Shown here one piece after another: positions 6,226-64,000 of a stretch of 64,000 nucleotides of DNA. Every line of letters begins with the position of its first letter. Within the stretch, counting starts at the first letter, position 1. This stretch comes from Acidimicrobiales bacterium. Its GTDB lineage: Bacteria > Actinomycetota > Acidimicrobiia > Acidimicrobiales > Bog-793. Made by a program: the position numbers and the translations under genes. The notes under the pieces were generated by a model. That model saw only the letters and a list, made by a program, of their open reading frames with translations, made no database searches and was not told where the DNA came from. The stretch covers positions 76,463-140,462 of the forward strand of contig JBEKBX010000015.1 in NCBI GenBank assembly GCA_050015175.1, read 5' to 3'.

Positions 6226-6226
6226 C

Positions 6227-17936: not shown

Positions 17937-17977
17937 CTCCTTGTGGAGCAGCTGGGCTCCTCCGTCTCGCCACTGGC

Positions 17978-18811: not shown

Positions 18812-18937
18812 ACAGGCAACCCTTCACCGGTCCCCTCTTCGGTCCGCACGCCGGCTGATTGCCGTTTGGTAGCTCGCAGGACGTAGTAAACACCCTGACT
18901 GGACACACAAGCGTTTCGAGCAAGGAGGACGACGGAC

Positions 18938-19587: not shown

Positions 19588-19644
19588 CCCGGCCGCCCCG
19601 GCCTAACGCCGTCGCGGGCCGATCGACAAAGCGCTCCGCCGAGC

Positions 19645-48183: not shown

Positions 48184-48274
48184 GTCGGGGATGCATCGAC
48201 GAGCCGGTGCTCACTAGGAGCTTGCATCTGCGGCCGGCGAGGGACATTAGGAACTCGCTGGCAAGCACCTGCAC

Positions 48275-48394
48275 TTACCAGTGCAGGTGAGGCCCTTGGA
48301 AGAAGGGAGCGGCCCCTGCGAACCAGAGAGCTCCCATCGTTGCGGCAGCGGCCGCTATCCGGGCGATTCTCTTCCGGGCCGTTGTTGTGCTCAT
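48275..48394 (-). CDS. Candidate 39-aa membrane-anchored small protein
   Basis: CAGGAGGAC lies 6 nt upstream of ATG 48394. Encodes 'MSTTTARKRIARIAAAAATMGALWFAGAAPFFQGPHLHW'. The stop is embedded in hairpin CCTGCAC-N6-GTGCAGG. Confidence 0.3.
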   Translation of the reverse strand: MSTTTARKRIARIAAAAATMGALWFAGAAPFFQGPHLHW

Positions 48395-48507
48395 CTTGCG
48401 GTCCTCCTGGATCGTGGCGGCTCATTTCGCCATGCTCGGCTAAGGAGCGTGACTATACAAAGACTCACGAGTCCGCCGCCAGCCAGTGGTCCTGATCGAG
48501 ACCCACG

Positions 48508-48628
48508 GTGACGAAGACTGCGCCAGGAAATGTCCAGGTCAACGGCGCCGCGGAGTCGTTCCGGTACCGGAGGCGGCTCACTGAGCTTGTCGCGTTCCTC
48601 GCCATGCCTCCCGAGGGGGCGGTTAACT
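48508..48628 (+). pseudogene. 5' fragment of a small wHTH/BTAD-like regulator gene split by the IS
   Basis: Encodes '...FRYRRRLTELVAFLAMPPEGAVN', then runs into IS sequence and stops at 48649-48651. Confidence 0.55.
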
Positions 48629-48662
48629 GCTCCGCTCTGAGTAGTCTTTAGATGGCGTACGT

Positions 48663-49256
48663 GTGTTCTATACTGGAGCCGTGAACCTTTCGGACTGGGC
48701 TGACCAGGTAGGTGTGAGCAAGTTCACTGCCTATCGCTGGTTCCGTGAAGGAACGCTCCCGGTTCCCGCCCAGCGGGTCGGTCGTCTGATCCTTGTGGAC
48801 ACTCCGTCTCCCGAGAAGGTGAGCAACCGGACTGTTTGCTATGCGCGAGTCTCCTCCCACGATCAGCGAGGAGACCTCGATCGACAGGTCGCCCGCATTA
48901 CCTCGTGGGCGACCGCCCACGGTCTACAGGTCGCCGAAGTCGTGACCGAGGTCGGATCAGGAGTGAACGCCGAGCGGCGCAAGCTCGCCCGACTGCTTGC
49001 AGACCCGAAAGCCCAGACCATCATTGTCGAGCATCGGGACAGGCTTGCCCGATTCGGGGTTGAGCATCTCCAAGCGGCACTTGGAGCGCAATGTCGCTCG
49101 ATTCAGGTTGTCGAAGACGGTGAGGTAGACGACGACCTCTTGAGGGACATGACCGAAGTTCTCACCTGGTTCTGTGCCCGTCTCTACGGGCGAGGTGGCG
49201 CACGGAACCGTGCGCTGCGCTCGATCACAGCAGCTAAACAAGCCCTGGCGACGTGA
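48663..49256 (+). CDS. tnpA: IS607-family serine recombinase TnpA (alternative start GTG 48681)
   Basis: MerR-like HTH 'SKFTAYRWFREGTLP' and serine-recombinase active site 'VCYARVSSHDQ'. Confidence 0.9.
   Translation: MFYTGAVNLSDWADQVGVSKFTAYRWFREGTLPVPAQRVGRLILVDTPSPEKVSNRTVCYARVSSHDQRGDLDRQVARITSWATAHGLQVAEVVTEVGSGVNAERRKLARLLADPKAQTIIVEHRDRLARFGVEHLQAALGAQCRSIQVVEDGEVDDDLLRDMTEVLTWFCARLYGRGGARNRALRSITAAKQALAT
48669..48674 (+). promoter_or_regulatory. -10-like hexamer TATACT for a possibly leaderless tnpA transcript
   Basis: TATACT lies 6 nt upstream of GTG 48681 ('NLSDWADQVGVS...'). This geometry is typical of actinobacterial leaderless genes. Confidence 0.35.
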
Positions 49257-50656
49257 CCGTCGTACGCCAGGGGTTCCGCTTCGAGCTTGACCCAAACAAC
49301 AAGTCTCGTTCGAAGCTGTCCTCACACACCGGTGCCAGCCGCTTCGCTTACAACTTCGGTCTCGCTCTTGTGAAAGAGCGGCTTGGCGAGCGGGCAAAGC
49401 TCCGCGCCTGGGCGCTCGACTACGGCCTTTGCGCCGATCAAGCCGAGGTCTTCGCCCGCAGTGTCGAAGTGCCGTGGAACCTCTACTCGCTCCGGCGGGA
49501 GTGGAACTTCGCCAAGAGCACTATCGCTCCGTGGTGGTCGGAGAACTCGAAAGAGGCGTACTCGTCCGGTCTCGATGGACTGGCTCGTGCGCTCGACAAC
49601 TTCTCGAAGGCCCGCTCTTTAGAACGAGCGGGACAGAGCGGGTTTCCTTCGTTCAAGAACAAGTCGGCACGACGCTCCTGCCGGTTCACAACCGGGGCGA
49701 TCAAGGTCGTCGACGACCGGCACGTCCAACTGCCGAGGATCGGCGTTCTCCGCACGAAAGAACCGGCGACCAAGCTCCGAGTGATGCTCGACAGTGGGAG
49801 CGCCCGGATTCTGTCGGCGACGATCTCCACCCTGGCCGGTCGATGGTTCGTCTCATTTGCTTGCGAGGTCGAGCGCTCCGATCGAAAGGCCAAGTGCCCG
49901 TCCGAGATCGTCGCCGTCGATCTCGGAGTCAAGCAGTTGGCCACGCTCTCTAATGGCGAGATTGTCGAGAACCCGACGGTGCTCTCTCGCTACCGGCGGC
50001 AGATGGCGAGCTTGCAGCGAAAGATCGCACGCCAGCAGCCCGGTTCTCGCCGTCGCGCCCACTCCAAGGCGAAGCTCGCCCGCTGTCACAAGCGGGTTGC
50101 CGACGCTCGGCGAGATGTCCTCCACAAGCTCACCACTGAACTTGCCGAGACCTACGGCACGGTCGTCATCGAAGACTTGGCCGTGAAGAACATGACGAAG
50201 TCGGCGTCGGGAACGATGGAGTCGCCGGGCACGAACGTCGCTCAGAAGTCGGGCCTCAACCGAGCCATCCTCGATGTCGCACCGGCTGAGTTCCGGCGTC
50301 AGCTCACCTACAAGATGGCCTGGCACTCCGGCCGCCTGATCGTGGCCAACCGGTTCTACCCGTCATCGAAGACCTGCTCGTCGTGTGGGGAAGTGAGAGC
50401 CAAGCTCTCCCTGGACGAGCGCACCTATACGTGCGAGCACTGCGGTCTTGTCATCGACAGAGACCTCAATGCCGCAATCAACCTTGCCGCCTACGCGCGA
50501 CGAGAGCTGGACGTCGCCGGGAGTGGCCTGGAGACGGTAAACGCACGTCGAGGAGACCAACCGCGACTGCGGTCGCAGTCTCCGGTGAAGCGTGAAGACG
50601 GCACCGGCTCGCCGGATAGGACCGCCACCGCCTCATCGCAACGTGAGGCTGCTTAA
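49253..50656 (+). CDS. tnpB: TnpB (OrfB) RNA-guided endonuclease family protein
   Basis: 'VAVDLGVKQLATLSNG' (RuvC-I), 'VVIEDLAVKNM' (RuvC-II), 'CSSCGEV...YTCEHCGLVIDRDLNAAINL' (Zn finger + RuvC-III). GTGA overlap with tnpA. Confidence 0.92.
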   Translation: MTVVRQGFRFELDPNNKSRSKLSSHTGASRFAYNFGLALVKERLGERAKLRAWALDYGLCADQAEVFARSVEVPWNLYSLRREWNFAKSTIAPWWSENSKEAYSSGLDGLARALDNFSKARSLERAGQSGFPSFKNKSARRSCRFTTGAIKVVDDRHVQLPRIGVLRTKEPATKLRVMLDSGSARILSATISTLAGRWFVSFACEVERSDRKAKCPSEIVAVDLGVKQLATLSNGEIVENPTVLSRYRRQMASLQRKIARQQPGSRRRAHSKAKLARCHKRVADARRDVLHKLTTELAETYGTVVIEDLAVKNMTKSASGTMESPGTNVAQKSGLNRAILDVAPAEFRRQLTYKMAWHSGRLIVANRFYPSSKTCSSCGEVRAKLSLDERTYTCEHCGLVIDRDLNAAINLAAYARRELDVAGSGLETVNARRGDQPRLRSQSPVKREDGTGSPDRTATASSQREAA

Positions 50657-50690
50657 TGGGCTGCGTAACTACTGCACGCTCATTTCGCAA
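50450..50690 (+). ncRNA. Predicted omega-RNA (scaffold in tnpB 3' end/right end plus flank-derived guide)
   Basis: Inferred from the established TnpB architecture. Nested hairpin GGAGAC..GCGAC-TGCG-GTCGC..GTCTCC at 50552-50583. The right end lies 14 nt after the tnpB stop. Confidence 0.3.
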
Positions 50691-50918
50691 CGGCTTGCCC
50701 ACTGGGCAGCACTTCAAGGATTGCTCGTCTCGCCCTGGGACGAGAGGCTCTACCGTCTCTTGATGCGGGCGGCAGACAGGATGGGGAGTCGCGGTGGCGT
50801 GGACGCCGCACTTCGCAGTCTTGCGCTGGCGCTCGAGCTCGAAGGCGACCCGCTGCTCGGCATCCATCCCGAGACGTCGGCGCTCTACCGCAGCCTCACC
50901 TCGAGCTCGCTCGCGTAG
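50666..50918 (+). pseudogene. 3' fragment of the IS-split wHTH/BTAD-like regulator gene
   Basis: Encodes 'YCTLISQRLAHW...DERLYRLLMRAADRMGSRGGVDAALRSLALALELEGDPLLGIHPETSALYRSL' (SARP/BTAD-like C-terminus). Confidence 0.55.
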
Positions 50919-50959
50919 CTTCGCAAGGCCGAACGCCAAACCACGGCTACGGTGGGCCC

Positions 50960-51736
50960 GTGGGGATACTCGAAGGCAAGCGCATTCTGGTCACCGGAGT
51001 GCTGACGGATGACTCTCTCGCGTTCGGCGCGGCCCGACTCGCTCAGGAGCAGGGAGCCGAGGTGGCACTCACCGGCTTCGGTCGAGGCCTCTCACTCACA
51101 AGCCGAGCGGCCCGCAAGCTTCCAGCACCGGTAGAGGTCTACGAGCTCGACGTCACAGTGGAGGAACAGGCGCACGAGGTGGCTTCAGAGCTCGCGAATC
51201 GATGGGGCGGACTGGATGGCGTCGTCCATGCGATCGGCTACGCACCTGACAGCTGCCTGGGCAACGGCGTCCTCGCGTCAGGTTGGGAGGACGTGGCGAC
51301 GGCGGTGGAGGTCTCGGCCTACTCGCTCAAGGTCCTCGCCGCGGCGTTTGCGCCCCTCCTCAGCAAAGCGGCGGGCGGAGGATCCATCGTCGGCTTCGAC
51401 TTCGACGCCTCCGTTGCCTGGCCCGGCTACGACTGGATGGGCGTCGCCAAGGCGGCGCTCGAATCCCTCGCCCGCTACCTCGCCCGCGACCTGGGACCAA
51501 GTGGAATCCGAGTCAACCTCGTCGCGGCGGGCCCGATCAGCACCGTGGCAGCAAGGTCGATTCCCAGTTTCGAGCGATTCGAGAGCGTGTGGAACGCGCG
51601 TGCCCCCCTCGGTTGGGACGTCCGCGATTCCGAAGCGGTCGCACGGGCCTGTGTCGCGCTCTTGTCGAACTGGTTCCCACGCACAACCGGAGAAATCATC
51701 CACGTGGACGGAGGATTCCACGCCACCGGGGTGTGA
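50960..51736 (+). CDS. fabI: Enoyl-[acyl-carrier-protein] reductase (NADH), FabI/InhA type
   Basis: 'GKRILVTGVLTDDSLAFG' and 'GYDWMGVAKAALESLARYLA'. GTG start. Confidence 0.9.
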   Translation: MGILEGKRILVTGVLTDDSLAFGAARLAQEQGAEVALTGFGRGLSLTSRAARKLPAPVEVYELDVTVEEQAHEVASELANRWGGLDGVVHAIGYAPDSCLGNGVLASGWEDVATAVEVSAYSLKVLAAAFAPLLSKAAGGGSIVGFDFDASVAWPGYDWMGVAKAALESLARYLARDLGPSGIRVNLVAAGPISTVAARSIPSFERFESVWNARAPLGWDVRDSEAVARACVALLSNWFPRTTGEIIHVDGGFHATGV

Positions 51737-51791
51737 CAGCTCCAGCGCAGACAGCGAACCCGATTCGGCAGAGGACTAGAACAGCCCATGG

Positions 51792-51829
51792 CGCGTCCAC
51801 GGGTGGGCGCTCAGCCACCCGTGGACGCG
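51792..51829 (+). terminator. Strong hairpin downstream of fabI
   Basis: 15-bp perfect stem CGCGTCCACGGGTGG / CCACCCGTGGACGCG with an 8-nt loop. No U-tract. Confidence 0.5.
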
Positions 51830-51952
51830 ACTTGCTCGGAGAGCCCTCGACACCCACAGACGGGGCGCGGACACACCGCGGTAGTGTTGGGCCGCCCTTC
51901 CGGACGGCGGTCGGTTCAGGCCGTCGGTCCTAGAGGTGAAGATGCTTGACCG

Positions 51953-52027
51953 GGCGGCGTGGCCGAGTGGTTTAGGCAAGGGCCTGCAAAGCCCTGTACC
52001 CCAGTTCGATTCTGGGCGCCGCCTCCA
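51953..52027 (+). tRNA. tRNA-Cys (GCA)
   Basis: Hand-folded cloverleaf. Acceptor GGCGGCG/CGCCGCC. Anticodon stem AGGGC/GCCCT with loop CTGCAAA. T-arm CCCAG-TTCGATT-CTGGG. Encoded CCA. Confidence 0.9.
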
Positions 52028-52110
52028 GTAAACTCCCTGGTAAAAGGCCTACACTTAAGTCCTGGCCGCTTCATACTCTGGTTCGTTGGCGCGAGGATGG
52101 CGCGGGACCT

Positions 52111-53241
52111 TCAGGGACGCAGGCGCACTATCCCGGACTTGGGCGCCCGTTTGGCCTCGGCGATGACAGCCCCTAAGAAGTCCGCGACGGCTCGGTCGCG
52201 CTCCGCGGTGGCGTGTTGGTAGATGAGCGCCGCCCGCGGGCTCGCGTGGCCCATCCGTGACATCACCTCTTTGGTCGTGATCCCCGGCATGCGGGCCGTG
52301 GTTCTACCCGCGAAGTGCCTTAGGTCGTGCGGGTGCACGCCCTCTATCCCTACGACGGCGCAAGCGGCGTGCCAGGCGTTCGACAGGTCCGAACGACGCA
52401 GCGGCCGTCCCGAGGGTCGGGTGAACACGTAGGCCTCAGGTTCGGGGGCGACGTAGGCGTCCAGGTGGTTACGCAGTTCGTCTCGGATCTCGGCAGGCAG
52501 CACCACGGTGCGATCTCCTGCCTCAGACTTGGGTGGCGTCAAAATGCGCCCCTGCCCGGTGATCTCGTGCGCCTCGCGTTGGACGTGCACGGTTGAGTGC
52601 AACAAGTCGATGTCACCACGCTGCAAGCCCAACAGCTCACCCGGTCGGAGCGTGCCGAATCCTGCAACAAGGACAAGAACGCGAAGCCGTGGAGCGATGG
52701 CGTCCGCGAGGTCGAACACCGTGGAGGTGTCGAGCATCGGCCGTTCGGTCGCGTGCTCGACGCCGGCGCCCTTGATCCCACACGGGTTGCGCGCGATCAG
52801 CTCGTCGCTGACGGCCGTCATGAGGATGGCGCGAAGCAGGCGGTACGACTTCGCGGCCTGATCGCTCCCCCTTTCGGCCGTGACCTTGCTGTGCCACTCC
52901 CGAACACGTTCGGGTGTGATCTGGCGCAACTTGGTCCTTCCGAAATGCAGGCCTATGTTGCGCCTGAGCAGCGCCTCGTAACCCTGCCGGGTCATCGGTG
53001 TGAGCGGTCGACCCTTGACGAGACGAGTCTCGAGCCAATCCGCGGCGTACTCGCCGAACACCCGCTCGCCGCCCTTCGGGTCGATTACCAACCCGGCCAG
53101 CTCGTCGGCGTGAACCTTCTTCAGCCGAGACTTGGCGTCCTTCTCCGTGCGGAACGTGTCGGTGCGGCGCTTGCCGTTGACGAGATAGCGCACGTCATAG
53201 CGCGGCCCGTCGTTCGTCTCTCGCTTGCGCACGTAGCCCAT
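52111..53241 (-). CDS. int: Tyrosine-type site-specific integrase
   Basis: 'HPHDLRHFAG' and 'GHASPRAALIYQH' C-terminal catalytic motifs. 83 nt from the 3' end of tRNA-Cys. Confidence 0.92.
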   Translation of the reverse strand: MGYVRKRETNDGPRYDVRYLVNGKRRTDTFRTEKDAKSRLKKVHADELAGLVIDPKGGERVFGEYAADWLETRLVKGRPLTPMTRQGYEALLRRNIGLHFGRTKLRQITPERVREWHSKVTAERGSDQAAKSYRLLRAILMTAVSDELIARNPCGIKGAGVEHATERPMLDTSTVFDLADAIAPRLRVLVLVAGFGTLRPGELLGLQRGDIDLLHSTVHVQREAHEITGQGRILTPPKSEAGDRTVVLPAEIRDELRNHLDAYVAPEPEAYVFTRPSGRPLRRSDLSNAWHAACAVVGIEGVHPHDLRHFAGRTTARMPGITTKEVMSRMGHASPRAALIYQHATAERDRAVADFLGAVIAEAKRAPKSGIVRLRP

Positions 53242-53829
53242 GACGGCACCTTAGCGAGTACAGGGCTTCTAGTACAGGGTATTTCCGCGCCATTGCCATG
53301 CTAGTCGGGCGATGAGTGGCCAAAGCGAACGCCCATCACCGTTAGCGCACCGGCCGGTCCGGCGCTCGCTCCCGCGGTCAAGACGTGCCCTTGGTGCCTA
53401 CGCGGCGGCGGGCAACTCGTAGCTCGGGTACCTGCGCCCCGAGCGACGGATCGAAGGTGTAGTAACGGGTTCGTAGTGAAGCCAGCAGGTGCAAGCGACG
53501 CGATTTTCATCTCGGATCGGGCGATCAGCAAGCCGTGCCGGCTTCGTCTCACGCGGGCCGATGACGAGTTGCCGTCCCGCCGGCCCCTATCGCGAACTAT
53601 CCAAGCTCACCAATCTCAACCCAAAGCTCCAACGCCAATCCAAGTCCATGACCGGCATGCCGAGCGAGCCGGAGCGACCTGCTCGCCAGCGCTGAGCTCT
53701 CCACCTCCGGCGAGAAATCCCCCGCGTTGTTGGGTGATGCCGTAGCAGGCCGCGGCGACGGCACCCGACCACACCCATCGAGCTTGCCGCCGGTGCGTGC
53801 GGAAGGCGGGGGAGACAGGGTCCTGCGCA

Positions 53830-55215
53830 TTACTTCTTGACCGATCGGTCCTCGGCGCTGGGCTTTGACAATGGCAGGTTTCGCAGATACGACCAATGCC
53901 AGGTTTTCCCACTGCTGTCGGTGATGCCCACGATGAGATGGTTGAGATTGTCAGGAGCCGATGCGCGCACGGTGTCCACTGCCAGGGCTGCCCAACTGCC
54001 GTTAGCAACTAGAGATTGAGGCAGGACGAAATCGACGTGACCGAAGAACGGTGCCTGAATAGAGTCCTTACTCCAGTAGGGGAAGACACCGGACCACTTC
54101 AACCCGGCATCAGTCGTGCGCTCGACGGATCCGGGCAACGCTCCGTTCCAATCGCGCCACAGCCAGGCCTGCTGCTTACTCGTGACGACGACCTGCCCGA
54201 CCTGGAACCAACCCCTCCACTTGAACTGCCAACTGTTGCCACTGTCGAAGGACACGTACGAGCGCGCTGGGAGCAGGCCGGGCATCGTGTCAAAGGCGCC
54301 TGTTGGGCACAGCAGCCAGAGCGCTTGTTTTATCCCGGTCAGGTAGAAGGAACCCCATCGTCTGGTACTCGTACACGGAGTCGTCCGCTTCACCCACGAT
54401 CGGCCTGCGTCGCTCGTGGTCCAGTAGTAACTGGGGGCTGCAACCTGGGACACGGGATCTTGCGCCTCGCTGAGATACACGGTCGAAGCGGAAAGAGGGA
54501 GAAGCTGCCAGTTGCAACTCGTGCCAAGGCGCGGCTGGTTCTTCACCGGTACCGGCAAAGCGCTGTCGCCGGACGACAAGAGAACCTCGGACCGGCAGTG
54601 ACTGGGCGGACCGAAACCCACTGACTCGACCATCCACGTTCGCCTGCCGGAGGTGGCGAGTGACAGCACGCTTCCGATCGTCGAAACCTCCTGCCAGTTC
54701 GCACCACTGTCGCTGGTTCGCCGTAGCACGCTCCCGCCCCACCACCAGCCGTCGCTCCGGGAATTGAAGGAAAGGTTGGAAGGGTTCACGGCCACGTCCG
54801 AGGGACCTGGTGGCTCACGCAGGGCAAGCCAGGTCTGGCCGCCGTTTGTGGTCCGTTCCAACAACGCCGAAGTGCCGTTAGCGCTCGCGCCCGTGACGAA
54901 TGCAAACCCTTCCTTGCTGCTCGGAAAGGTGAGCGACGTGACTGACCAATGGCCGATGAAGTTGATCGAGCTGGCTGATGCCGAGAATTGACCTGTAGGA
55001 GAACCTCGTCCCGGCTCAGGCGAGGTGGGAACGACCCGCTTCGGCCCGGTCCTGGCCGGCCAGCCTGTTGCCCCCACAGATGCCACAATCGCTGCCACGA
55101 GGACCACTACGGCAGCAATCGCCCACCGCCGGCGGACCTGACGTCGCCTGGCTTCTTTGATGAGAGCCGCGGCCTCCAGTACCAGGGAATCGGGTTCGTC
55201 CTGAACAACAGACAT
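53830..55215 (-). CDS. Membrane-anchored Asp-box (BNR) repeat beta-propeller protein
   Basis: N-terminal TM 'WAIAAVVVLVAAIVASVGA'. Asp-box-like repeats 'TTNGGQTW', 'TSDSGANW', 'TSDAGRSW', 'SFDSGNSW', 'TTDAGLKW', 'DSSGKTW'. Confidence 0.7.
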   Translation of the reverse strand: MSVVQDEPDSLVLEAAALIKEARRRQVRRRWAIAAVVVLVAAIVASVGATGWPARTGPKRVVPTSPEPGRGSPTGQFSASASSINFIGHWSVTSLTFPSSKEGFAFVTGASANGTSALLERTTNGGQTWLALREPPGPSDVAVNPSNLSFNSRSDGWWWGGSVLRRTSDSGANWQEVSTIGSVLSLATSGRRTWMVESVGFGPPSHCRSEVLLSSGDSALPVPVKNQPRLGTSCNWQLLPLSASTVYLSEAQDPVSQVAAPSYYWTTSDAGRSWVKRTTPCTSTRRWGSFYLTGIKQALWLLCPTGAFDTMPGLLPARSYVSFDSGNSWQFKWRGWFQVGQVVVTSKQQAWLWRDWNGALPGSVERTTDAGLKWSGVFPYWSKDSIQAPFFGHVDFVLPQSLVANGSWAALAVDTVRASAPDNLNHLIVGITDSSGKTWHWSYLRNLPLSKPSAEDRSVKK

Positions 55216-55229
55216 CTCCGCCAGACCTC

Positions 55230-55571
55230 CTATGAGACCTGCTCGATCAGCTTTGCGATCTCGTCCGGTCGATAGCCGAGACGCCGTGCCATCGACACGA
55301 GCTCTTGGGCTTTCACGACGAGAGCGCCGTGTTCGGGTGCGGCCCCGCTGACGGTGACTCCTCGTCCCCGGCGAAACTCCAGCAGTCCCTCCTCCCGAAG
55401 GGTGTGAAGGGCACGCAGGACGGTGTTCCTGTTCACCCCCAGTACAGCCGCGAGGTCGAAGGCTGGTGGGAGGCGGTCTCCGGGGTTCGCCTCACCGTCG
55501 GCGATGGCACGCCGGACGGCCGCGGCGACCTGCTCGTGCAGAGGAATGGCGCTGCCGAGATCGATGTCCGT
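55230..55571 (-). CDS. GntR-family (short, YtrA-like) transcriptional regulator (proposed ACG start)
   Basis: In-frame 'IPLHEQVAAAVRRAIADGEANPGDRLPPAFDLAAVLGVNRNTVLRALHTLREEGLLEFRRGRGVTV'. The first canonical start (GTG 55436) would cut the wHTH in half. Confidence 0.75.
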   Translation of the reverse strand, partial: TDIDLGSAIPLHEQVAAAVRRAIADGEANPGDRLPPAFDLAAVLGVNRNTVLRALHTLREEGLLEFRRGRGVTVSGAAPEHGALVVKAQELVSMARRLGYRPDEIAKLIEQVS

Positions 55572-55630
55572 GAAGAAATAATACTATTAAACCTAGTACA
55601 ACTCAACCGCAGCCAGCCGCGTCACCTCTG

Positions 55631-55701
55631 CCGGGGGCGTCCCGCACAGGGGCGAACGCACGAAGGACGGAAGGGGGGTTCCGGCCTACGGACGCCCCCG
55701 G
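55631..55701. repeat. 12-bp perfect inverted repeat flanking a 47-nt GC-rich spacer
   Basis: CCGGGGGCGTCC (55631-55642) and GGACGCCCCCGG (55690-55701), between the 752-aa propeller gene stop and the gntR promoter region. Possible terminator. Confidence 0.4.
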
Positions 55702-55738
55702 GACTGCGGTCATTGTGGCCCCTCCTCGGTGGGGACGG

Positions 55739-57997
55739 TCAGCTCACGGCGGCCCAACGTCGTCCTCCGTCGGTCGTGCGCCAGAGCGCGGGTTGGACCG
55801 CCGTTGGCACGCCGGGGGCGAAGTCGGTTCCGACCAGCATCCAACCGACGGCGGGTTGACCGGGAAGGAACTGGATAGCAACGGGTCCAAGCCCCACGGG
55901 CCACTGTGCTCCGGCGAGCCGTGTTTCGGTCATCGATCGCGGCAGCAAGTACCTGGTCCAGGTGTGCCCACGGTCGAGCGTCTTAAGGAGACCGGTCGCC
56001 AGCACGAGCGCTTCCGGCTCTCCGAGGGCGTCCCCGAACCTTGTCAGCCACAACCAGGCGGCGTCGGGGCTGAGCGCCTCGATGTCGTAGCCGGGCGTGC
56101 TCGGGGCCTCTTCTCCTACGGTGGGGACCGAAGCGAGGACGGACCAGTGACTACCAGCGTCGAGCGTCGCGTCAAGTGTCGCCGGGCAACCCGGGAATGC
56201 GGCTCCCGAAACGAGCCAGCCCCCTCGTCCGGCAAAGCTCGTGGCGATGACCGGGCCCGCTCCGACGGAAAGCTTCGTAACCGTCCAAGCCCTTCCTCCG
56301 TTTGAGGTATCGAGCAGGAGGTTGGGGCGACTCGCCGCGCAAGGCAGCGAAACGGCGCTGGCCTGTGAGGGGACGACAATGCGTGCCCGGGCGATCGAGA
56401 TCGCTTGGAGAGCGCCGGGGCCCAGCGGTAGCTTTGCCAAGGTCATTGCTGTGTTGTCCGGGAGCGGGACCGTCGCCTCCCAGCGGAGGCCACCGTCGGC
56501 CGTCGTCAAGACCTCGGCTGTGCCCCCTCCCGTTTCGCCGGTGATGACCAGTGCCCAACCGTGGACCGCGTCGGTGAAATCGACGCCGAGGAATTCGCTC
56601 CCGATCGCGCTCACCTGCCGCCAGGTGCGGCCCCCGTTGCTCGTCGCAAGCAGTGCGCCCGGATCGGCGATCGTGCCCCAGCCGAAACCCATTCTGGAGG
56701 AGACGAAGTCGATTCCGTTCACTGGGCTCGATGCCGGCAAGACCTGCGTCCAGTCGAGGCCGGCGTCTACGGTGCGTAACACCGATGTGGAGCTCACCGC
56801 CCAGCCTTTGGCGGACGGGATAACCATAGAGGTGGGCGTTGCAGCGAAGCCGGCGGTCCGGAGCAGGTGCCAGGTGCGGCCGCCGTCGCCTGTTTCGTCG
56901 ACATGGTCGCGCTCGACCGGGCACTGGCCCTCGGTGCCGAGGTTCACGAGGATCTTGCCGTGCGGGCCAGCTGCCACAGCGCCGATGGGAGTGCCACACC
57001 CGAAGAAAGTCCCAGGAAGAGTGGCCGATGACCAGGCCTCGCCCCCGTCCGCGGTTGTCAGCACCTCGTCTAGGCCACAACCGTGCATCGCGCAGGTTGA
57101 CGAGGAGAACAGCGTGATGGCGCCGAAGTTGGCGGACGCGAAGACAATCTGGGTCGCGATGTCGGACGGGATCGGAAGCTCCGAACGAGGTCGCACCAAA
57201 CCGAGCCGCACCCAACTCTTCCCGTCGTTGCTGCTCTGCAGGACTCGCACCCAGCTCGAGCTCGCCCGAGCGCTGTCCGCCGAGGTTCGTGCCTCGACTG
57301 CCCATGTGGTCCGCCCCAACGATGTGAGCGCGATGACCGGTGAGGCCGTCTGCAGGACCGTCGTCCAGTGCATTCCGGCGTCGACCGTGCGCTCGATGCG
57401 ACCGCGACACGGTGCTGGCGGCACAGGCTCACTGCTCGACGACGCCTTGCACGCATCGACAGCCACGAAGCCGACGAGTGGCGAGACAAAGGTCATCGAC
57501 CAGATCGGTGGCAGATCTCGGCCGACAGCCGACCAGTGTCGCCCCGCGTCGGTAGTCGAGAGAAGCACGTGGCACGGGCGCAACAGGCCGCCGGTCCCGC
57601 ACGCGGGGCTCGATGCCAGGTTGCCGAGGAGGAAGCCGTCGGACGCAGAAGAAAACGCGAGCGTCGTGCCGAGAACCGCCCCCGTCGAACCGACGCGCCA
57701 CTGGGCTCCGCCGTCAGTCGTCCTCGCAAAGATCCCCGTGCACTTTGGCGAGCATGTTGAACCGGTGACGAACCCGGCGTCCGTGCCCGCTGCGGCCACC
57801 GCGGCGTAGCTCGTGGCTTGGTCCTGCACCGTCGCCGGCGAGAACTCGGCGTGCACCACTTTCGTCACGCAGAGGGTCCCGTCCGAGTGAGCTGCGCACG
57901 TCTGCCCCCTTGTCGAGGCAGATGTGGCGGTGTTCGTTGCGACCGCGATGTCGATCGTCGCCAGGACGACTGCCGCGATAACGCGATAGCGATGCGT
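55739..57997 (-). CDS. Secreted tandem beta-propeller protein with about 13 Asp-box repeats (GH74/sortilin-Vps10-like) (proposed ACG start)
   Basis: Repeats 'TTDGGAQW', 'TTDAGRHW', 'TVDAGMHW', 'SNDGKSW', 'TADGGEAW', 'TGDGGRTW', 'TVDAGLDW', 'TSNGGRTW', 'TADGGLRW', 'TSNGGRAW', 'TLDAGSHW', 'TLDRGHTW', 'TTDGGRRW'. A signal-peptide-like segment lies upstream of GTG 57868. Confidence 0.75.
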   Translation of the reverse strand, partial: THRYRVIAAVVLATIDIAVATNTATSASTRGQTCAAHSDGTLCVTKVVHAEFSPATVQDQATSYAAVAAAGTDAGFVTGSTCSPKCTGIFARTTDGGAQWRVGSTGAVLGTTLAFSSASDGFLLGNLASSPACGTGGLLRPCHVLLSTTDAGRHWSAVGRDLPPIWSMTFVSPLVGFVAVDACKASSSSEPVPPAPCRGRIERTVDAGMHWTTVLQTASPVIALTSLGRTTWAVEARTSADSARASSSWVRVLQSSNDGKSWVRLGLVRPRSELPIPSDIATQIVFASANFGAITLFSSSTCAMHGCGLDEVLTTADGGEAWSSATLPGTFFGCGTPIGAVAAGPHGKILVNLGTEGQCPVERDHVDETGDGGRTWHLLRTAGFAATPTSMVIPSAKGWAVSSTSVLRTVDAGLDWTQVLPASSPVNGIDFVSSRMGFGWGTIADPGALLATSNGGRTWRQVSAIGSEFLGVDFTDAVHGWALVITGETGGGTAEVLTTADGGLRWEATVPLPDNTAMTLAKLPLGPGALQAISIARARIVVPSQASAVSLPCAASRPNLLLDTSNGGRAWTVTKLSVGAGPVIATSFAGRGGWLVSGAAFPGCPATLDATLDAGSHWSVLASVPTVGEEAPSTPGYDIEALSPDAAWLWLTRFGDALGEPEALVLATGLLKTLDRGHTWTRYLLPRSMTETRLAGAQWPVGLGPVAIQFLPGQPAVGWMLVGTDFAPGVPTAVQPALWRTTDGGRRWAAVS

Positions 57998-58103
57998 GCC
58001 GTCACACTCTCATAGCGCTTGAGACAATTGTTGTCGCCTCCATGCAGTTATGAAGCCTCACGGTGAATTGGTCCGTTGACTGTGGTCTGCGTCGCTGCGC
58101 GCT

Positions 58104-59297
58104 CTAGAGGGAAAGCGACCCGAAGTCATCGCCATGGCACATGTTCAGGCTGAGTTCGTCACTCGGTGACGAGCTGGCGTTGGCCACGACTGCCCTTCCT
58201 GCTGCGAAGCGGAGCAGGAATGACGCAGGAACGAGTCGGTGGTTGGCACAGGTACCGCCAGTCAGGTTCAGCAGTCCCAGCATTTCGCCGAGAGGGACTT
58301 GACCGGCCACGATCGGATTGGCTCGAGGGCTGAGCACGAGAAGGGACTGTTGAACTCCGAGATCGGTCATGAGACCCACCGCCGCCGTGATCGTCCGGGT
58401 GACGGGCTTGCCGGCGGCGTTCAGGCCAGTCGCCTTAACGGTGCTCGGGAAGAGGCAGGCGCGACGCGAAACGTCCCGGGCAACGATGGAGCCCACGTCC
58501 TGGAAGCTGTTAACGGCGCCACCACCTACGTACTGGAACGCCACGTCGGCCGATGAGCAGGTTGGCTCCGGGCCGACAGCGATGACGAGGTCCAACTGGC
58601 TGCCGATCCCGGGAAAGCCCGCCGGTGGGTACTGCAACAGGACGCTCCCGAACTTCACAGAAGGATCGACCTCGTCGCCGGCGTCACCTGCAGCAAAGCC
58701 TTTATCAGCGGCAACTCGGCCCGCCTTTACGAGCGGGAGTCCCTCGACGTCCGGGGCTAGGGCACCGGGGAGGCGGGCCCCGGCGAGCCCAGCCGTTGCG
58801 ACAAGGGTGGAAGTGAGCGTGGCGTCGAGCACTCTGGCGTTTCTGCCCAGGTAGGCAAGCGGTCGAGGACAGCCAAACTCGACGACGTCGACGGCGACCT
58901 CTTCGCGAGAGGAGGTGTAGCCGAACAGCAGCACCACGTCGGGGGGGATCGCCGCACATCGCTTCGTCAGGGCGTCCCCTGGCGGTGCCTCGTTGATCAG
59001 GACAGTGAGGGCGTTTGCGGCGTAGGCGCCGAGGAGGACTCCGTCCCTCGGTCGTTTCGAGATCGTCTTCGACGGGCCGCAGAGCCGGACCGCGGTCGCC
59101 CCGGACGGCACCTCGGATGGCTCGTTGTTGGCGACCGTCTTCGGCTGTCGCGCCGGCTGACCTTCGCAAAGGCTCGGGGCGACATATTTGCGCGAGGCGA
59201 CGTCTTGGTGGATGGATGAGACGGCAGTCGCGCAAGCGCCGAGGAGCAACGCCAGGACCATTGCGCCGATCGCGCCGAACTCGCGCACCGTGCTCAT
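58104..59297 (-). CDS. Putative lipoprotein with a PASTA-like segment
   Basis: 'MSTVREFGAIGAMVLALLLGAC' (lipobox-like). 'PDVEGLPLVKAGRVAADKGFA...GSVLLQYPPAGFPGIGSQLDLVIAVG' resembles a PASTA domain. Confidence 0.55.
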   Translation of the reverse strand: MSTVREFGAIGAMVLALLLGACATAVSSIHQDVASRKYVAPSLCEGQPARQPKTVANNEPSEVPSGATAVRLCGPSKTISKRPRDGVLLGAYAANALTVLINEAPPGDALTKRCAAIPPDVVLLFGYTSSREEVAVDVVEFGCPRPLAYLGRNARVLDATLTSTLVATAGLAGARLPGALAPDVEGLPLVKAGRVAADKGFAAGDAGDEVDPSVKFGSVLLQYPPAGFPGIGSQLDLVIAVGPEPTCSSADVAFQYVGGGAVNSFQDVGSIVARDVSRRACLFPSTVKATGLNAAGKPVTRTITAAVGLMTDLGVQQSLLVLSPRANPIVAGQVPLGEMLGLLNLTGGTCANHRLVPASFLLRFAAGRAVVANASSSPSDELSLNMCHGDDFGSLSL

Positions 59298-59396
59298 GGT
59301 CTCACCAAACGTCCACGTAGCGCGTTCGCGCTCTAGGCCCGCACACAGACGCCCACGTTCGCCCACCTGAAGGCGTCGAAACCACGAGAAGTCAGC

Positions 59397-61583
59397 TCAT
59401 GGCCGCCGACGTTCAGCGTGGGCACGAAGGGGGTCGGCACCAGGAGAGGCGGCATCAGCCGATCGTTCTGATCCAGTGATCGAGGCAAGAGTGGAGCGCC
59501 ATGCGTCGCGCCAGTGTCGCCGCTTCTCATCGTCGGCCAGCGCCGCGTCGACCGCCGTGGAGCCTTCGAACGGCCACAGCGGTTCACCTCCCGATGCCAA
59601 GCAGAGCCGAGCGAGAAACGAACGCCGCACCAGGTCTCGAAGTCGATCGACGGCGAAGGCCATCGCCACGCCAAAAGGGGCATCGTCAGCGACGGTGGAT
59701 ACCGAGTAGATCCACTTGCGCAGATCTGACTCCTTGATGCGTTCACCATGCACGAGCCTCGATCGCACCCCATACAGAGAGCTCACATCGCGGTAGATAG
59801 CCAGGCCCGGATCGTCGTCGGTCCACAGCAACGCCGCCGCACGCGTCCGGAGACGATGACCCACCGCTTCGGTGTCGGATTCCGATCCGGTGAGGATCGC
59901 TTCGAGGGCCGTCGCCAGGTCGATGACTCTTTCGAAGTCGTCGCCGGTCTCGTGCGACCGGTTGTAGTTGAGCAGCGCCACGTCGAAGGAGGTCGCCACC
60001 ATTCCTTCCCGCTTGACCACGGCGGCATCGAGGAGCTCACCGAGGCCGGCGAACGCTGCGGCGTCGGAGTCCTGCAGCTCCACGACTCTCTGCATGCGGA
60101 TGTCGGGGATGATGGCCTTCTCGAACCGGCGGTACATCGGAGAGACCCGCGAGACGAGCGTCGAGGCTCCGATCAGCTGCCAACACGATTGGTACGTTCC
60201 AGCGAACAGGAGTCGGGCGAGTAGTAGGAACCGGTCGATGCGCCCCGCCAACGTCCGGGCCACGCCGTAGATGTCTCCATCGTCGGTGGTGCTGCTCGTG
60301 ACGAGGAGAGAGCTTGGCGGGTCGTAGAACCTTGGGATCTGGCGGTTGAGGGCCGATGGCCCTGCCGGTATCAGGTGGATCGATCGGCGGAGGAGATCGT
60401 CCGACTCTCCCGAGTCCGGATAGATCGTGACGTCTCCGAGCGTCACCGGAGATCCGGTGGCGGGAGCGATCTGCGAAGCGGCACGACAGCAGTTCATCGT
60501 GTACTCGCTCGCATCGAGCACGCTCAAGAGCTCATCCACTGATGCCTGGACGGGCGGAGTGTCCGCTTCAAACACATCGTCTCCGGCATCCGAACATCGG
60601 ACGACGCAACCCTCGAGGAAACTGAAGACGTACATGTTCGAGAATTCGGGATGCGGCTTCGTCATCGGATCAGAGAAACGCTGCGGATAAGCGATGTCGA
60701 GCGCCTCTTCCAACGCGGAGAACTCCGTACCGCTGACGTCTGCGCCTGAGTAGTCGCGACCCACGTCGATGAAGGGGTGGTGCCTTGGCGGGGGCACGAT
60801 GTGATCCTGCGCAAGGGCTGGGAACGCGGCTCCGATGAACGAGTGCGCCAGAGCGGCGATCACATCCCGTTGACTGACCGGGTCGTGTGCGCCGCGCTTC
60901 CCACTTTGATACTCCCAGATCTCATGATCGAGAGCCCGTGGGTCGACGTCAAAGTGCTGGGCCGCCGCTTCGACGAGGGCCACGGCCCGGTCCGCTTCGA
61001 CGGTGCGTTCTTCGACGCCGAGCGCGCTCGCGACGAACCGCAGCACCATTCGATCCGGCTTGACGTCTCGTAGCCCAACCAGCATCCGCAGGTACCCCCA
61101 CGAGATGCCTGAGCGCTGACCGGGAACGGAGAGCCATGCTTGCTTCGCCTGATCTCCCAACGCCGAGCCGTCGGCGTCGCGAAACTGCGCCGCAGTGTCA
61201 ATGCCCAGATCATGAAGAGCCAGAGCGGCGCGGTGAACCGCATCCCCCTTACGAACGGCATCGGGCTGGGTCGAGACACGGTTACGAGTACCGACCTCGT
61301 CGATGAAGCCATCGACCCCGCCCACTGCTTCGTAGAAGGCGAGCAGTTCGGGCAGGCCGTCTTCTTCGGGATTCCCCTGCCAACGTCGCCGTCCCCGGTA
61401 TCGTTCGACGACCCCTCTCGCTATCACGTAGCGCGCGTTGATGGACCAGATGGCATCGACCACCGAGAGGGCGAGACCATCCGGATAACCGGTGAAGGGT
61501 TTCCAGTCTGCGGATGGAGCAAGGCGTTCTCGACAGGCGCTGACCATCTTGTCGATGTCGGGCTGCCCAACCTGCTCAGGCAT
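59397..61583 (-). CDS. 728-aa protein with HhH-like N-terminal region and C-terminal HEPN-like (Rx4H) domain
   Basis: GGGGAG lies 6 nt upstream of ATG 61583. 'VPGQRSGISWGYLRMLVGLRDVKPDRMVLRFV'. C-terminal 'LATALEAIL...HRLRTRAAALL...LYGVRSRLVHG' (RSRLVH at 59748-59765). Confidence 0.6.
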   Translation of the reverse strand: MPEQVGQPDIDKMVSACRERLAPSADWKPFTGYPDGLALSVVDAIWSINARYVIARGVVERYRGRRRWQGNPEEDGLPELLAFYEAVGGVDGFIDEVGTRNRVSTQPDAVRKGDAVHRAALALHDLGIDTAAQFRDADGSALGDQAKQAWLSVPGQRSGISWGYLRMLVGLRDVKPDRMVLRFVASALGVEERTVEADRAVALVEAAAQHFDVDPRALDHEIWEYQSGKRGAHDPVSQRDVIAALAHSFIGAAFPALAQDHIVPPPRHHPFIDVGRDYSGADVSGTEFSALEEALDIAYPQRFSDPMTKPHPEFSNMYVFSFLEGCVVRCSDAGDDVFEADTPPVQASVDELLSVLDASEYTMNCCRAASQIAPATGSPVTLGDVTIYPDSGESDDLLRRSIHLIPAGPSALNRQIPRFYDPPSSLLVTSSTTDDGDIYGVARTLAGRIDRFLLLARLLFAGTYQSCWQLIGASTLVSRVSPMYRRFEKAIIPDIRMQRVVELQDSDAAAFAGLGELLDAAVVKREGMVATSFDVALLNYNRSHETGDDFERVIDLATALEAILTGSESDTEAVGHRLRTRAAALLWTDDDPGLAIYRDVSSLYGVRSRLVHGERIKESDLRKWIYSVSTVADDAPFGVAMAFAVDRLRDLVRRSFLARLCLASGGEPLWPFEGSTAVDAALADDEKRRHWRDAWRSTLASITGSERSADAASPGADPLRAHAERRRP

Positions 61584-61869
61584 CGTCGACTCCCCTGAAC
61601 GCGACGTCCTCAGCCACGTCCGGATCGATCGCAGCGCGATTCTGGCCCACCGCCCCATCCTCCTTTCCACTTTGCCGGGAACGGTGCCCTCGGGGTGGGA
61701 CGGCAGCCTTGTCCGGGGGTCTGTGCGGAGGGTACAGCGGCGACCCGGAGGCCAGCGGATCGACTGGAGCGACGCTCGTGGATCCGGAGGACCTCCCGGC
61801 CACGACGTCTCCGTCGTGCTTCCTCACCCGACCGAGCTGCCACTGACCGGCGGGATCTCCCGTGCTCGT

Positions 61870-61898
61870 ACCTATGTCCAGAAATCCTGGACATAGGT
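61870..61898. promoter_or_regulatory. Perfect 12-bp inverted repeat (candidate operator) in the divergent intergenic region
   Basis: ACCTATGTCCAG-AAATC-CTGGACATAGGT, 14 nt upstream of GTG 61912 and followed by TATGCT. Confidence 0.6.
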
Positions 61899-61911
61899 GT
61901 ATGCTAGGTCC

Positions 61912-64000
61912 GTGCCGTCCGCCGCCGAGATGCTCCAGTCAACGCTGGGAGAGACCGCCTACCTGGCGCTGAAGGCTCTGGCTGAGAGCCGGAAACCCCT
62001 GTCCGGGCGCCAGATGGCCACCGCATTAAGCGTTGCACCGACCACGGCGACGGGGGCTCTGAGGAGGCTCCGGGACGCCGGGTTCGCCCTGTCCAGTCAG
62101 GAGGGGAGGGCGACCCGTTGGCACCTCAACACCGACAACCCTGTGGTGCGCGCCTGGCTCGAGGGAGAACGAAGCGAGGTGAGCCCTGCAATGGCAGCTG
62201 ACGGGATGAGCCCGTACGCCACCGGGGGCGGGGGTGTGACCTTCGAGCGGAAGGTCGGCGTCCAGTATCTCGCCAACCTCCTGCTCGGGGACGCAGCCCC
62301 GGAGCTGGGCGACGGTCGGTTCGTGGTGAGCGTGTCTTTCCAGCAGGCGCCGGAGCATTCGGTCGATGATCTCGTCGTCCGCGCTGCTCGCGAGGGGGAA
62401 CCGGAGCCGTCGCTCGTGCTCGCCGTCGCGGTGCGCCGTGCTCCCAACCTCGTTCAGAGCAACGAGGACTCCCGGAAGCTGATCCGTTCCTTCATGAACG
62501 AGATCGTCAACGCGCCTGCCGAAGGTCCCGAGCATCGAGTGGCGCTCGTCGTTGCAGGCACCCAGGATCACGCCAAACAAATCGCCACCCTCGCCGGCCT
62601 TGCATCCAATCAGGTGGAAGCGTCGAGCTTTTTCGGCCTTGTCGGAACTCTCGGGCGATTCAGCGCCGACATTCGTGGTCGCCTGGATCAGGTCCAAGCA
62701 CTGGTGAGGCTTGCACTTCAGGACCTTGGCATCGCCGACCCTGCCGAGGAGGTCGTCCGGCAACGCACGTGGGAATTGCTGTCCCGCCTCACCGTGCTGA
62801 TGCCGCGCCTTGAGGCACCGGACGAGGCGGACTGGGGAGCGATCGCGAATGCCCTGACCCGCATCGCTCGCGGAGGTGATCTGTACGGCGCGTCCCGGCT
62901 GCGCGACCGGCTGGTTGCACTCGCATCCGAGTATCCACAGAACGCCGCCTCGGTCGATCGGAGCCTGCTTCGGCGTCAAGCCCACGAAGTCCTCGACTCC
63001 ACTGCCCGCCACCACGTGCAGGGACGGGGAGCCCTCGACCACCTTCACGCACGCGCCATCGCAGCGGTGCGCAGCGAGATCACCTCCGAGGATCGCAGTC
63101 GCGTCGTCCATTTGGATCGAACCGACGTGTCGGCCGAACTCGCTGCAGTCATCGCATCCTCACCGCCGGCTGTGGTTGCGCACGGCGACTCTGGAGTTGG
63201 GAAGAGCGCTGTCGTGGTTCAGACGGCGACGGACGCCGCCACCAACACTCCCGACTCGACGCAGGCGTTGTGTATCAACCTGCGTCACCTCCCCAAGACG
63301 AGTCTTGAGTTCGAGTCGTACCTCGGTGCGCCACTTGCAACGCTCCTCGCAGAACTCAGTGCTCCTCAACGGCTTCTCGTCATCGACGGCGCCGATGCGA
63401 TCTCCGAGGGTATGAGCGACGTCTTCCAGTACGTCGTTGATGCTGCGGTGACCGGCGACGTGACGATCGTCGCTGTGACCGCGACCGAGAGCAAACAGCT
63501 TGCGCGCGACATGATCTCCGACCGGGTGAACGGACAGGTCGTCGACTTTCCCGTGTCGCCCCTGACGGATACCGAGATCGACACCATCGTCGCCGTGTTC
63601 GGCGAATTGGCTCCGCTGGCAGCCAACCCGCGCTCGCGAGATCTGTTGCGTCGGCCGATCGTGGCGGACCTGTTGGTACGGGGAGGCCCATCAGGAACCC
63701 CGTTGAGCGACGCAGAAGCGATGGAGCAGGTCTGGTCGGGGTTGGTCCGCCATCGCGGGCAATCCGAACATGGAACGCCCGACGCGCGTGACCTTGCGCT
63801 GTTGCGCCTGGCGGATCTGGCGCTCTGCGGCGGAGACGCGGTCACGGTCGTCGGTGCCATCGACCCGGCAGCACTCAACGGTCTCCGGCGAGACGGGGTG
63901 TTGCGGACGCCTGACGACTCATGGGCTATTGGACCCGAGTTCGCTCACGACGAACTGCGGCGCTATGCGATCGCGCGTCTTCTTCTGGCGCCGGGCAACT
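61912..64000 (+). CDS. wHTH - nuclease-like - P-loop (STAND/NACHT-like) NTPase, 3' end outside window
   Basis: Frame 1 is open from the stop at 61894 to the window end (checked codon by codon; absent from the track because there is no stop). wHTH 'LSGRQMATALSVAPTTATGALRRLRDAGF'. Walker A 'GDSGVGKS' (63184-63207). Walker B 'LLVIDGAD' (63373-63396). Alternative starts at 61897 and 61930. Confidence 0.75.
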   Translation, partial: MPSAAEMLQSTLGETAYLALKALAESRKPLSGRQMATALSVAPTTATGALRRLRDAGFALSSQEGRATRWHLNTDNPVVRAWLEGERSEVSPAMAADGMSPYATGGGGVTFERKVGVQYLANLLLGDAAPELGDGRFVVSVSFQQAPEHSVDDLVVRAAREGEPEPSLVLAVAVRRAPNLVQSNEDSRKLIRSFMNEIVNAPAEGPEHRVALVVAGTQDHAKQIATLAGLASNQVEASSFFGLVGTLGRFSADIRGRLDQVQALVRLALQDLGIADPAEEVVRQRTWELLSRLTVLMPRLEAPDEADWGAIANALTRIARGGDLYGASRLRDRLVALASEYPQNAASVDRSLLRRQAHEVLDSTARHHVQGRGALDHLHARAIAAVRSEITSEDRSRVVHLDRTDVSAELAAVIASSPPAVVAHGDSGVGKSAVVVQTATDAATNTPDSTQALCINLRHLPKTSLEFESYLGAPLATLLAELSAPQRLLVIDGADAISEGMSDVFQYVVDAAVTGDVTIVAVTATESKQLARDMISDRVNGQVVDFPVSPLTDTEIDTIVAVFGELAPLAANPRSRDLLRRPIVADLLVRGGPSGTPLSDAEAMEQVWSGLVRHRGQSEHGTPDARDLALLRLADLALCGGDAVTVVGAIDPAALNGLRRDGVLRTPDDSWAIGPEFAHDELRRYAIARLLLAPGN

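Follow-up and report, generated by a model that had tools for sequence, protein, structure and literature searches.

The window analyzed here, a 64,000-nt stretch of DNA from an Acidimicrobiales bacterium (GenBank assembly GCA_050015175.1, contig JBEKBX010000015.1, positions 76,463 to 140,462), ends in two large, divergently transcribed genes, A and B. A first-pass annotation had joined them in an undescribed two-gene defense module, in which a HEPN RNase (A) would be paired with a STAND-type NTPase (B). We found that this two-gene system is not supported. On balance, the locus probably comprises two independent single-gene immune-type modules that are co-located on a variable, integrase-associated island without being partners, and the two genes would be adjacent because both sit in that island. 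The product of gene A is probably an ApeA-like HEPN protein, which here is fused to a glycosylase-like domain in an arrangement not described before. The product of gene B is, as judged from its sequence, a distant Avs4-like antiviral STAND protein and adds a member or a variant to a known class. The gene models, conserved motifs, domain modularity, absence of co-conservation, remote similarity to Avs4 and island contexts come from the data, and all biochemical activities and triggers proposed below are inferred.

Distribution of genes A and B

The divergent gene pair itself is real. It consists of a minus-strand open reading frame (ORF; 59397-61670), for which an alignment with 30 relatives placed the start at ATG 61583 to give a 728-aa protein, and of a plus-strand ORF that is cut off by the window end, with a spacer that has one of two lengths (Table 1) depending on the start codon of B. 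We surveyed 42 genomic loci with A relatives and metagenomic contigs for six further A relatives. Whether the genes are conserved neighbors across genomes was checked in 47 A-family loci and four B-family loci, with neighbors counted within 8-10 kb where the contig reaches that far. A tblastn search with full-length B placed B next to A in only two of the 47 A-family loci (L010 and L017) and found no B relative in the other 45, and an A relative was absent from all four B-family loci. Both positive loci are Acidimicrobiaceae contigs from metagenome-assembled genomes of the same lineage, and over the A-B region they are 93-95% identical to the window at the nucleotide level; the three copies therefore represent one evolutionary event and not co-conservation. 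When ORFs from 49 loci and the window end were clustered, no neighbor recurred beside A across distinct locus groups, integrases in eight loci excepted, and A thus appears to act alone, without a partner that is kept beside it. Most genes of either family stand alone, amid unrelated neighbors.

The alternative is that A and B form one abortive-infection module, with the STAND protein sensing infection and activating or licensing the HEPN protein, and with both genes co-regulated from the spacer. The divergent, adjacent arrangement speaks for it, as does a 9.15-kb block (a 330-aa unknown gene, B and A) that is common to L010 (141-9268) and L017 (3210-12345) with different flanks, and that appears to move or persist as a unit. 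This recurrence counts a little against our preference for independent genes, in that the A-B block persists in one lineage and leaves small room for lineage-specific cooperation. It also points to a unit that behaves like a cassette, or to a hot spot of recombination; synteny of the window with both loci ends about 25-30 bp past the stop codon of A (window 59367-59397). A joint module is nevertheless very unlikely, because the three copies trace to a single event, the partner is missing from every other surveyed locus of either family, the closest characterized analogs (ApeA and Avs) each act alone, and the palindrome in the spacer lies at the promoter of B only. The 330-aa gene downstream of B was considered as a third component and rejected, since the other B loci do not have it. 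In L017, a 1,181-aa protein with adenylate/guanylate cyclase, AAA_16 STAND and TPR regions (17873-21418, minus strand) was found 6 kb from gene A, and a second tyrosine integrase (15263-16459) adjoins it.

The gene A family

When 1.84 billion representative proteins were searched by profile for matches to gene A, 6,648 were found at E≤1e-3, and 416 passed E≤1e-30. Among the best 150 matches, most were proteins of ~470-520 aa that cover residues ~243-725 of A, and others were proteins of 230-245 aa that cover residues 7-238. Gene A is itself a fusion of a glycosylase-like N-terminal domain (N-domain) with this core, a point that the first-pass annotation had missed. The full-length fusion was found in Acidimicrobiales, Catenulispora, Kitasatospora, Streptacidiphilus and Actinospica, and core-only forms in Streptomyces, Nocardia, Solirubrobacterales, Gaiellaceae, Dormibacterota and Chloroflexota. 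Where the two parts are separate, the stand-alone N-domain and stand-alone core genes are not neighbors, so that a Rosetta-stone link was not seen. By sequence, A belongs to a large family, mostly of Actinomycetota, with a core of ~490 aa that is matched by no tested Pfam, NCBIfam or PADLOC model.

Two other fusions that involve these domains were observed. One protein (P0227; 647 aa) carries a GNAT acetyltransferase domain (PF00583, 2.5e-11) N-terminal to the HEPN-like core, a second variable N-terminal accessory. Another (P0314; 370 aa) joins a homolog of the A N-domain to a MazG-like nucleotide pyrophosphohydrolase (PF12643, 7e-8), which hints that the N-domain deals with non-canonical nucleotides.

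AlphaFold2 (AF2) models were obtained for the whole of A (predicted local distance difference test score, pLDDT, 87; predicted template modeling score, pTM, 0.81) and for residues 235-728 (pLDDT 88; pTM 0.88). The predicted secondary structure of the core consists of helices at 235-357, strands and helices at 361-503, and helices at 505-728. The last of these regions holds the motif LYGVRSRLVHG (residues 603-613), which had been taken as the Rx4H motif of a HEPN domain, and the motif is real. In an alignment of 79 core sequences with a mean identity of 33% (alignment A4), the invariant residues were P264, G472, R499, R581, Y604, R607, H612, G613, R647, R653, R654, R659 and W670, and E561, S608, D646 and D650 were near-invariant. 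Of the 85 stand-alone core representatives left after clustering at 50% identity, 83 have RSxxxHG and one other has RNxxxHG. The earlier numbering of the catalytic pair as R636 and H641 applies to a 757-aa ORF that begins at a GTG; in the 728-aa protein the pair is R607 and H612. Two core members carry the NCBI label 'HEPN domain-containing protein'.

The closest characterized analog of A is ApeA, which Gao and co-workers reportedly described in 2020 as a single-gene HEPN defense. ApeA consists of N-terminal, Mid (alpha/beta) and insert-rich HEPN domains, forms ring oligomers and cleaves tRNA anticodon loops; the trigger of Ec2ApeA is 5'-phosphorylated deoxydinucleotides, and R502A is the catalytic mutant used for its structure (bioRxiv 10.64898/2026.01.26.701840). 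Partial sequences from the supplement of that report were used to obtain full-length homologs, 32 of which were aligned. When the profile of the A C-terminal domain (C-domain) was compared with the ApeA HEPN domain by hhalign, the score was 29.8 (P=0.0012), and eleven control comparisons with reversed profiles and unrelated helical domains scored 10.8-22.1. The alignment places 'DLATALEA' of A on 'NLWIALESL' of ApeA, with E561 on E371, and 'LYGVRSRLVHG' on 'IYRxRNxIVHxG', with R607 on R502 and H612 on H507. A full-length comparison of the A core with ApeA was collinear over the N, Mid and HEPN domains and weak (P=0.009).

Taken as a whole, the two families share several features. Both consist of single genes that occur in mobile or defense islands without a conserved partner, and both have the signature h-Y-x-x-R-[SN]-x-h-V-H-x-G together with a Glu in an 'ALE(A/S)L' helix, in register. 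The AF2 model of A suggests that the ApeA domain order of helical N lobe, alpha/beta mid domain and insert-rich HEPN may be common to both as well. They differ in that ApeA is ~540-600 aa long and the A core ~490 aa, in that the long H1-H3 insert of ApeA is much shorter in A (a gap in the hhalign alignment), in that there is no significant sequence or HMM (hidden Markov model) match between them, and in the extra HhH-GPD-like domain that gene A carries.

The N-domain resembles DNA glycosylases in its predicted structure. Foldseek matched it to the thymine-DNA glycosylase 1kea (probability 0.98; template modeling score 0.52 on the target over 221 columns) and to mOGG1 7ayz (probability 0.96), although the E-values of the glycosylase matches were just 0.24-0.43. 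In the stretch VPGQRSGISWGYLRMLVGLRDVKPD177, residues P154, Q156, D173, P176 and D177 are invariant in the fusion family, and hhalign placed D177 on the catalytic D138 of E. coli Nth (Endo III), with P=0.017-0.11, no better than controls. Faint HHH_5 and RNA_pol_A_CTD matches were found in two stand-alone N-domain homologs.

A number of results weigh against reading A as an ApeA-like HEPN defense protein with a glycosylase-like domain. Against ApeA, hhalign gave the C-domain a probability of just 19% and the whole core one of 4%. Foldseek searches with the full-length and 235-728 models against the PDB, and with the latter also against BFVD, returned no HEPN or ApeA structure (best E>0.5), it being not established whether the searched PDB copy includes ApeA structures. 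PDB sequence and profile searches with A1, A4 and A5 gave nothing meaningful; scans of A, 31 close and 79 distant relatives with Pfam, NCBIfam and PADLOC gave nothing consistent; and the PADLOC ApeA model PDLC02157 matched neither A nor 79 relatives. The N-domain had no Pfam HhH-GPD match and no PDB glycosylase sequence match, and hhalign comparisons with E. coli Nth, MutY and AlkA found the right register without significance. One stand-alone core homolog sits in an ordinary-looking neighborhood, and a scan of IMG/VR found no relative of the A core.

The negative library scans carry little weight, because the same models miss true ApeA proteins. As a control, PDLC02157 matched Ec2ApeA (2e-12) and missed Thr1ApeA and two other ApeA homologs, and Pfam HEPN_Apea missed all of four ApeA homologs (P0350, P0376, P0398 and P0414), among them Ec2ApeA and Thr1ApeA, which have been characterized by experiment. 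Current libraries thus under-detect the ApeA family, and a missing Pfam or PADLOC match was rejected as an argument against HEPN, given that bona fide ApeA proteins also escape those models. The proposal that A is a HEPN protein is therefore plausible and not proven: the Rx4H motif is invariant and falls in register with that of ApeA, whereas the structure search found no match. We consider it likely that the C-domain is a catalytic HEPN domain. The core may also be a genuine, though very remote, homolog of ApeA, at somewhat less than an even chance. Since its structure match comes without a significant sequence match, the N-domain is called HhH-GPD-like by fold only, from the predicted model.

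An alternative is that A is not an RNase, its Arg/His motif being structural or ligand-binding, and that it acts on DNA through the glycosylase-like domain or has a non-defense role in mobile elements. The lack of a HEPN match from Foldseek or any HMM library and the weak hhalign comparison with ApeA would fit such a protein, as would the invariant Asp at the HhH-GPD catalytic position, and HhH glycosylases alone can give defense. We regard this as unlikely, because most members of the family do without the N-domain and yet keep RSxxxHG, E561 and the invariant Arg/Asp/Trp set, so that the core is an autonomous functional unit, and because the motif, the preceding Tyr, the following Gly and the upstream Glu helix match the catalytic signature of ApeA in register.

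The genomic contexts of A relatives are varied. One relative is accompanied by KwaB and NERD genes, another by ubiquitin-like Bub genes and NERD, and others by an M78 peptidase, an integrase and giant DEAD/MZB and SNF2 helicases, by a relaxase, Lsr2 and two other STAND proteins, by Replic_Relax genes, or by DUF3644, AAA_21/RloB, DUF499 and SNF2/NOV_C. In L053, a 62%-identical homolog of A lies on a relaxase-bearing element between two other STAND-type proteins (3605-6661 and 14104-18195), one NPHP3_N-like (1,018 aa) and one with CHAT and NB-ARC domains (1,363 aa), neither of them related to B.

For an ApeA-like A we infer the following course. Two HEPN domains would dimerise to form a composite RNase site with R607 and H612, which would stay off until an infection cue is bound and would then cleave RNA and abort the infection; by analogy with ApeA, the target might be the anticodon loops of tRNAs. 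In the fusion sub-branch, the HhH-GPD-like domain may bind DNA or non-canonical bases, either phage-modified or damaged, and could be a sensor that licenses the RNase or a second effector. Only tentatively can the whole clade be read as ApeA-like HEPN abortive-infection RNases, one sub-branch of which captured a glycosylase-like domain that couples base recognition or excision to RNA cleavage. Unannotated HhH-fold glycosylases make up the anti-phage 'Dag' families (bioRxiv 10.1101/2025.10.29.685425). Compared by description, these resemble the N-domain in being unannotated, in having a predicted HhH-glycosylase-like fold and in their mobile or defense contexts; in A such a domain is joined to a HEPN-like core, whereas the words 'HEPN', 'fusion' and 'fused' are absent from the main text on Dag. 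DARNA is a HEPN tRNase that is activated by SSB-bound single-stranded DNA (bioRxiv 10.64898/2026.02.22.705581). Again by description, DARNA is like the proposed A in coupling HEPN RNase activation to a DNA signal through a non-catalytic domain of the same polypeptide, and it differs in its opposite order (N-terminal HEPN and C-terminal helical DNA claw) and in having no glycosylase-like fold. Literature searches found no description of a glycosylase-like sensor combined with a HEPN RNase effector.

Gene B and its promoter region

Gene B had been described as a gene of over 690 aa truncated by the window. The truncation is correct, and the protein is far larger: the ortholog in L010 (1183-6570) is 1,795 aa long and 91% identical. 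More than 225 relatives of B were found, and a family profile was built from 25 of them. Many of the database relatives look short because they are split by frameshifts, and in two loci (L057 and L058) the match to B continues in the gene call that follows. In the 1,795-aa ortholog, the NTPase is followed by about 1,050 aa that look like a sensor, giving a tripartite single polypeptide.

The assignment of a STAND NTPase to B holds. Walker A (GDSGVGKS; aa 419-426) and Walker B (LLVIDGADA; aa 482-490) are invariant in the B family, and the segment NPRSRDLLRR (aa 566-575), also pointed out earlier, is present and conserved. Matches of B to Pfam NACHT, nSTAND5 and AAA_16 were all sub-threshold, and its relatives carry precomputed NACHT/nSTAND1 matches. 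The family profile matched the solved structure of Avs4 (8dgf_A) with E=6.6e-7 at two places, one around the P-loop and the other in a sensor segment, where 'WYRGTGVGPYPC' of B aligned with 'WCSYRGTQVSTY' of Avs4. An N-terminal winged helix-turn-helix (wHTH) domain is likewise present, with sub-threshold family matches (Table 1). It occurs only in the closest relatives, and most others begin at MSPYATGGGG; DNA binding is thus not the core function of the B family. The conserved domain that follows (aa ~90-385) had been called a nuclease-like module, which the profiles do not bear out: searches of the family libraries and of the PDB came up empty, and a (D/E)xK triad is not apparent.

Avs4 (AVAST type 4; PDB 8dgf) is, like B, a giant single polypeptide in which an N-terminal domain and a STAND NTPase with Walker A/B precede a long helical C-terminal sensor, and it is activated by the phage portal protein. 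The N-terminal domain of B is not the nuclease described for Avs4, and the wHTH is an extra of one B sub-branch. Two results count against B as an Avs4-type protein. The NCBIfam Avs4 equivalog scored 18.9 bits on B against a cut-off of 1500, outside Avs4 membership, and the domain at aa ~90-385, the presumed effector, matched no family or PDB entry. With a score so far below the cut-off and E=6.6e-7 to 8dgf_A, B is a distant relative of Avs4 and not a member. B resembles the named single-gene system Avs/AVAST, and this likeness counts against the proposed undescribed two-gene module, as does the lack of co-conservation. A recent survey counted at least 90 antiviral STAND families, and in those characterized a single polypeptide senses a phage protein (PMC13581612). 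By this model, the C-terminal sensor of B would bind a conserved phage protein, ATP-dependent oligomerization would follow, and the conserved N-domain would act as the effector.

The reading frame of B is open from ~61897 through the end of the window. GTG 61912 (VPSAAEMLQ...) is favored as its start over ATG 61930 because B relatives with the same N-terminus have six residues before 'ML'. Within the A/B spacer lies the perfect palindrome that had been reported, and it is real: it is unique in the window, and one of 2000 shuffled versions of the spacer had arms of ≥12 nt. It is kept in both orthologous loci, L010 and L017, amid diverged flanks, with the conserved core CACCTATGTC[C/T]AGAAAT[C/T/A]CTGGACATAGGTG and with 17-nt arms in L017; it was sought and found absent upstream of a wHTH-bearing B relative in Kitasatospora. 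The palindrome abuts the start of B and is at least 270 bp away from that of A. A search of the spacer (61584-61911) for a sigma-70 consensus promoter found none. A -10-like hexamer upstream of GTG 61912 is kept as TATGCT or TAGGCT in the orthologs, and its spacing suggests a leaderless actinobacterial promoter with the palindrome over about -15 to -43. Gene B may then be translated from a leaderless mRNA starting at GTG 61912, and ATG 61930 may be internal. An Rfam scan of 59000-64000 gave no match.

Regulators of the AfsR/MalT type, with HTH, NTPase and repeats, are common in Actinobacteria, and B might instead be such a STAND-class transcriptional regulator, controlling its neighbors, possibly A, through the palindrome. 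The N-terminal wHTH, the adjoining perfect and conserved palindrome and the JGI label of one B relative as an ArsR-family regulator are in line with this idea. It is quite improbable, however, as most relatives lack the wHTH, the family profile matches Avs4 in both the P-loop and the sensor segment, one relative sits among transposases, GmrSD and AbiEi, and a palindrome that overlaps B's own promoter fits autoregulation. The simplest reading is that the palindrome is probably B's own operator; the wHTH of an Avs4-like B would most likely repress its own promoter through it.

The island and its significance

The tRNA-Cys gene and the tyrosine integrase that had been taken to anchor an island are present, 6 kb beyond gene A (Table 1). 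No att repeat of the 3' end of tRNA-Cys was found within the window, so the far end of the island is not seen. Three cargo proteins are encoded between the integrase and A: two with BNR/Ycf48-like repeats (the one of 709 aa matching PF14870, 1.4e-10) and one of 420 aa with a weak PASTA match; all look secreted or envelope-associated and are not defense-like. The G+C content in 1-kb bins is 0.61-0.68 over the last ~17 kb (47000-64000) and 0.66-0.74 in most of the upstream window, and the lower value fits horizontally acquired DNA that begins before tRNA-Cys.

Table 1. Features of the window, with coordinates counted from its first letter.
Feature	Coordinates	Strand	Description
tRNA-Cys	51953-52027	+	Island anchor
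Tyrosine integrase	52111-53241	-	Island anchor
Island cargo, integrase to gene A	53830-55215, 55739-57868, 58104-59366	- (all)	
Gene A	59397..61583	-	728 aa; HhH-GPD-like N-domain and ApeA-like core; from ORF, 67 close homologs and AF2 model
All-alpha HEPN-like domain of A	59400..60071	-	Residues 505-728; all helices in AF2 model
RSRLVHG, putative HEPN Rx4H catalytic motif	59745..59765	-	R607-G613
DLATALEAILT helix	59889..59921	-	Residues 555-565; near-invariant E561; would correspond to HEPN helix 1
Helical lobe and alpha/beta 'mid' domain of A	60072..60878	-	Residues 236-504; AF2 secondary structure
N-domain of A, HhH-GPD DNA-glycosylase-like	60879..61583	-	Residues 1-235; also stand-alone, 230-245 aa; Foldseek
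Putative HhH-hairpin / Gly-Pro loop / Asp177 motif	61035..61136	-	A residues 150-183, WLSVPGQRSGISWGYLRMLVGLRDVKPDRMVLRF
Divergent A/B intergenic region	61584..61911	.	328 bp to GTG 61912; 346 bp to ATG 61930
Perfect palindrome	61870..61898	.	ACCTATGTCCAG-5 nt-CTGGACATAGGT; 12-nt arms, 5-nt spacer; putative operator over -35/spacer of B promoter
TATGCT, -10-like TANNNT hexamer	61900..61905	+	6 nt upstream of GTG 61912; sequence reading
Gene B	61912..64000	+	Start GTG 61912 or ATG 61930; runs off window end; Avs4-like STAND NTPase
wHTH of B (ArsR/MarR-like)	61930..62154	+	aa 1-75; Pfam HTH_11/MarR and NCBIfam ArsR matches sub-threshold
Conserved N-terminal domain of B	62197..63084	+	aa ~90-385; begins SPYATGGGGVTFERK; many invariant residues; presumed effector position
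STAND NTPase of B	63127..63999	+	aa ~400-690; Walker A 63184-63207, Walker B 63373-63399

That two genes diverge side by side on an island does not in itself speak for a system, and the co-conservation test clearly fails here. If the A family does consist of HEPN defense RNases, it would be a large, mostly actinobacterial clade of single genes that the tested Pfam, NCBIfam and PADLOC models miss, and the fusion in this genome would be a testable case of an RNase directly coupled to the sensing of DNA bases. Gene B, for its part, would extend the Avs4-like STAND repertoire into Acidimicrobiia, with an uncharacterized N-terminal domain at the presumed effector position.

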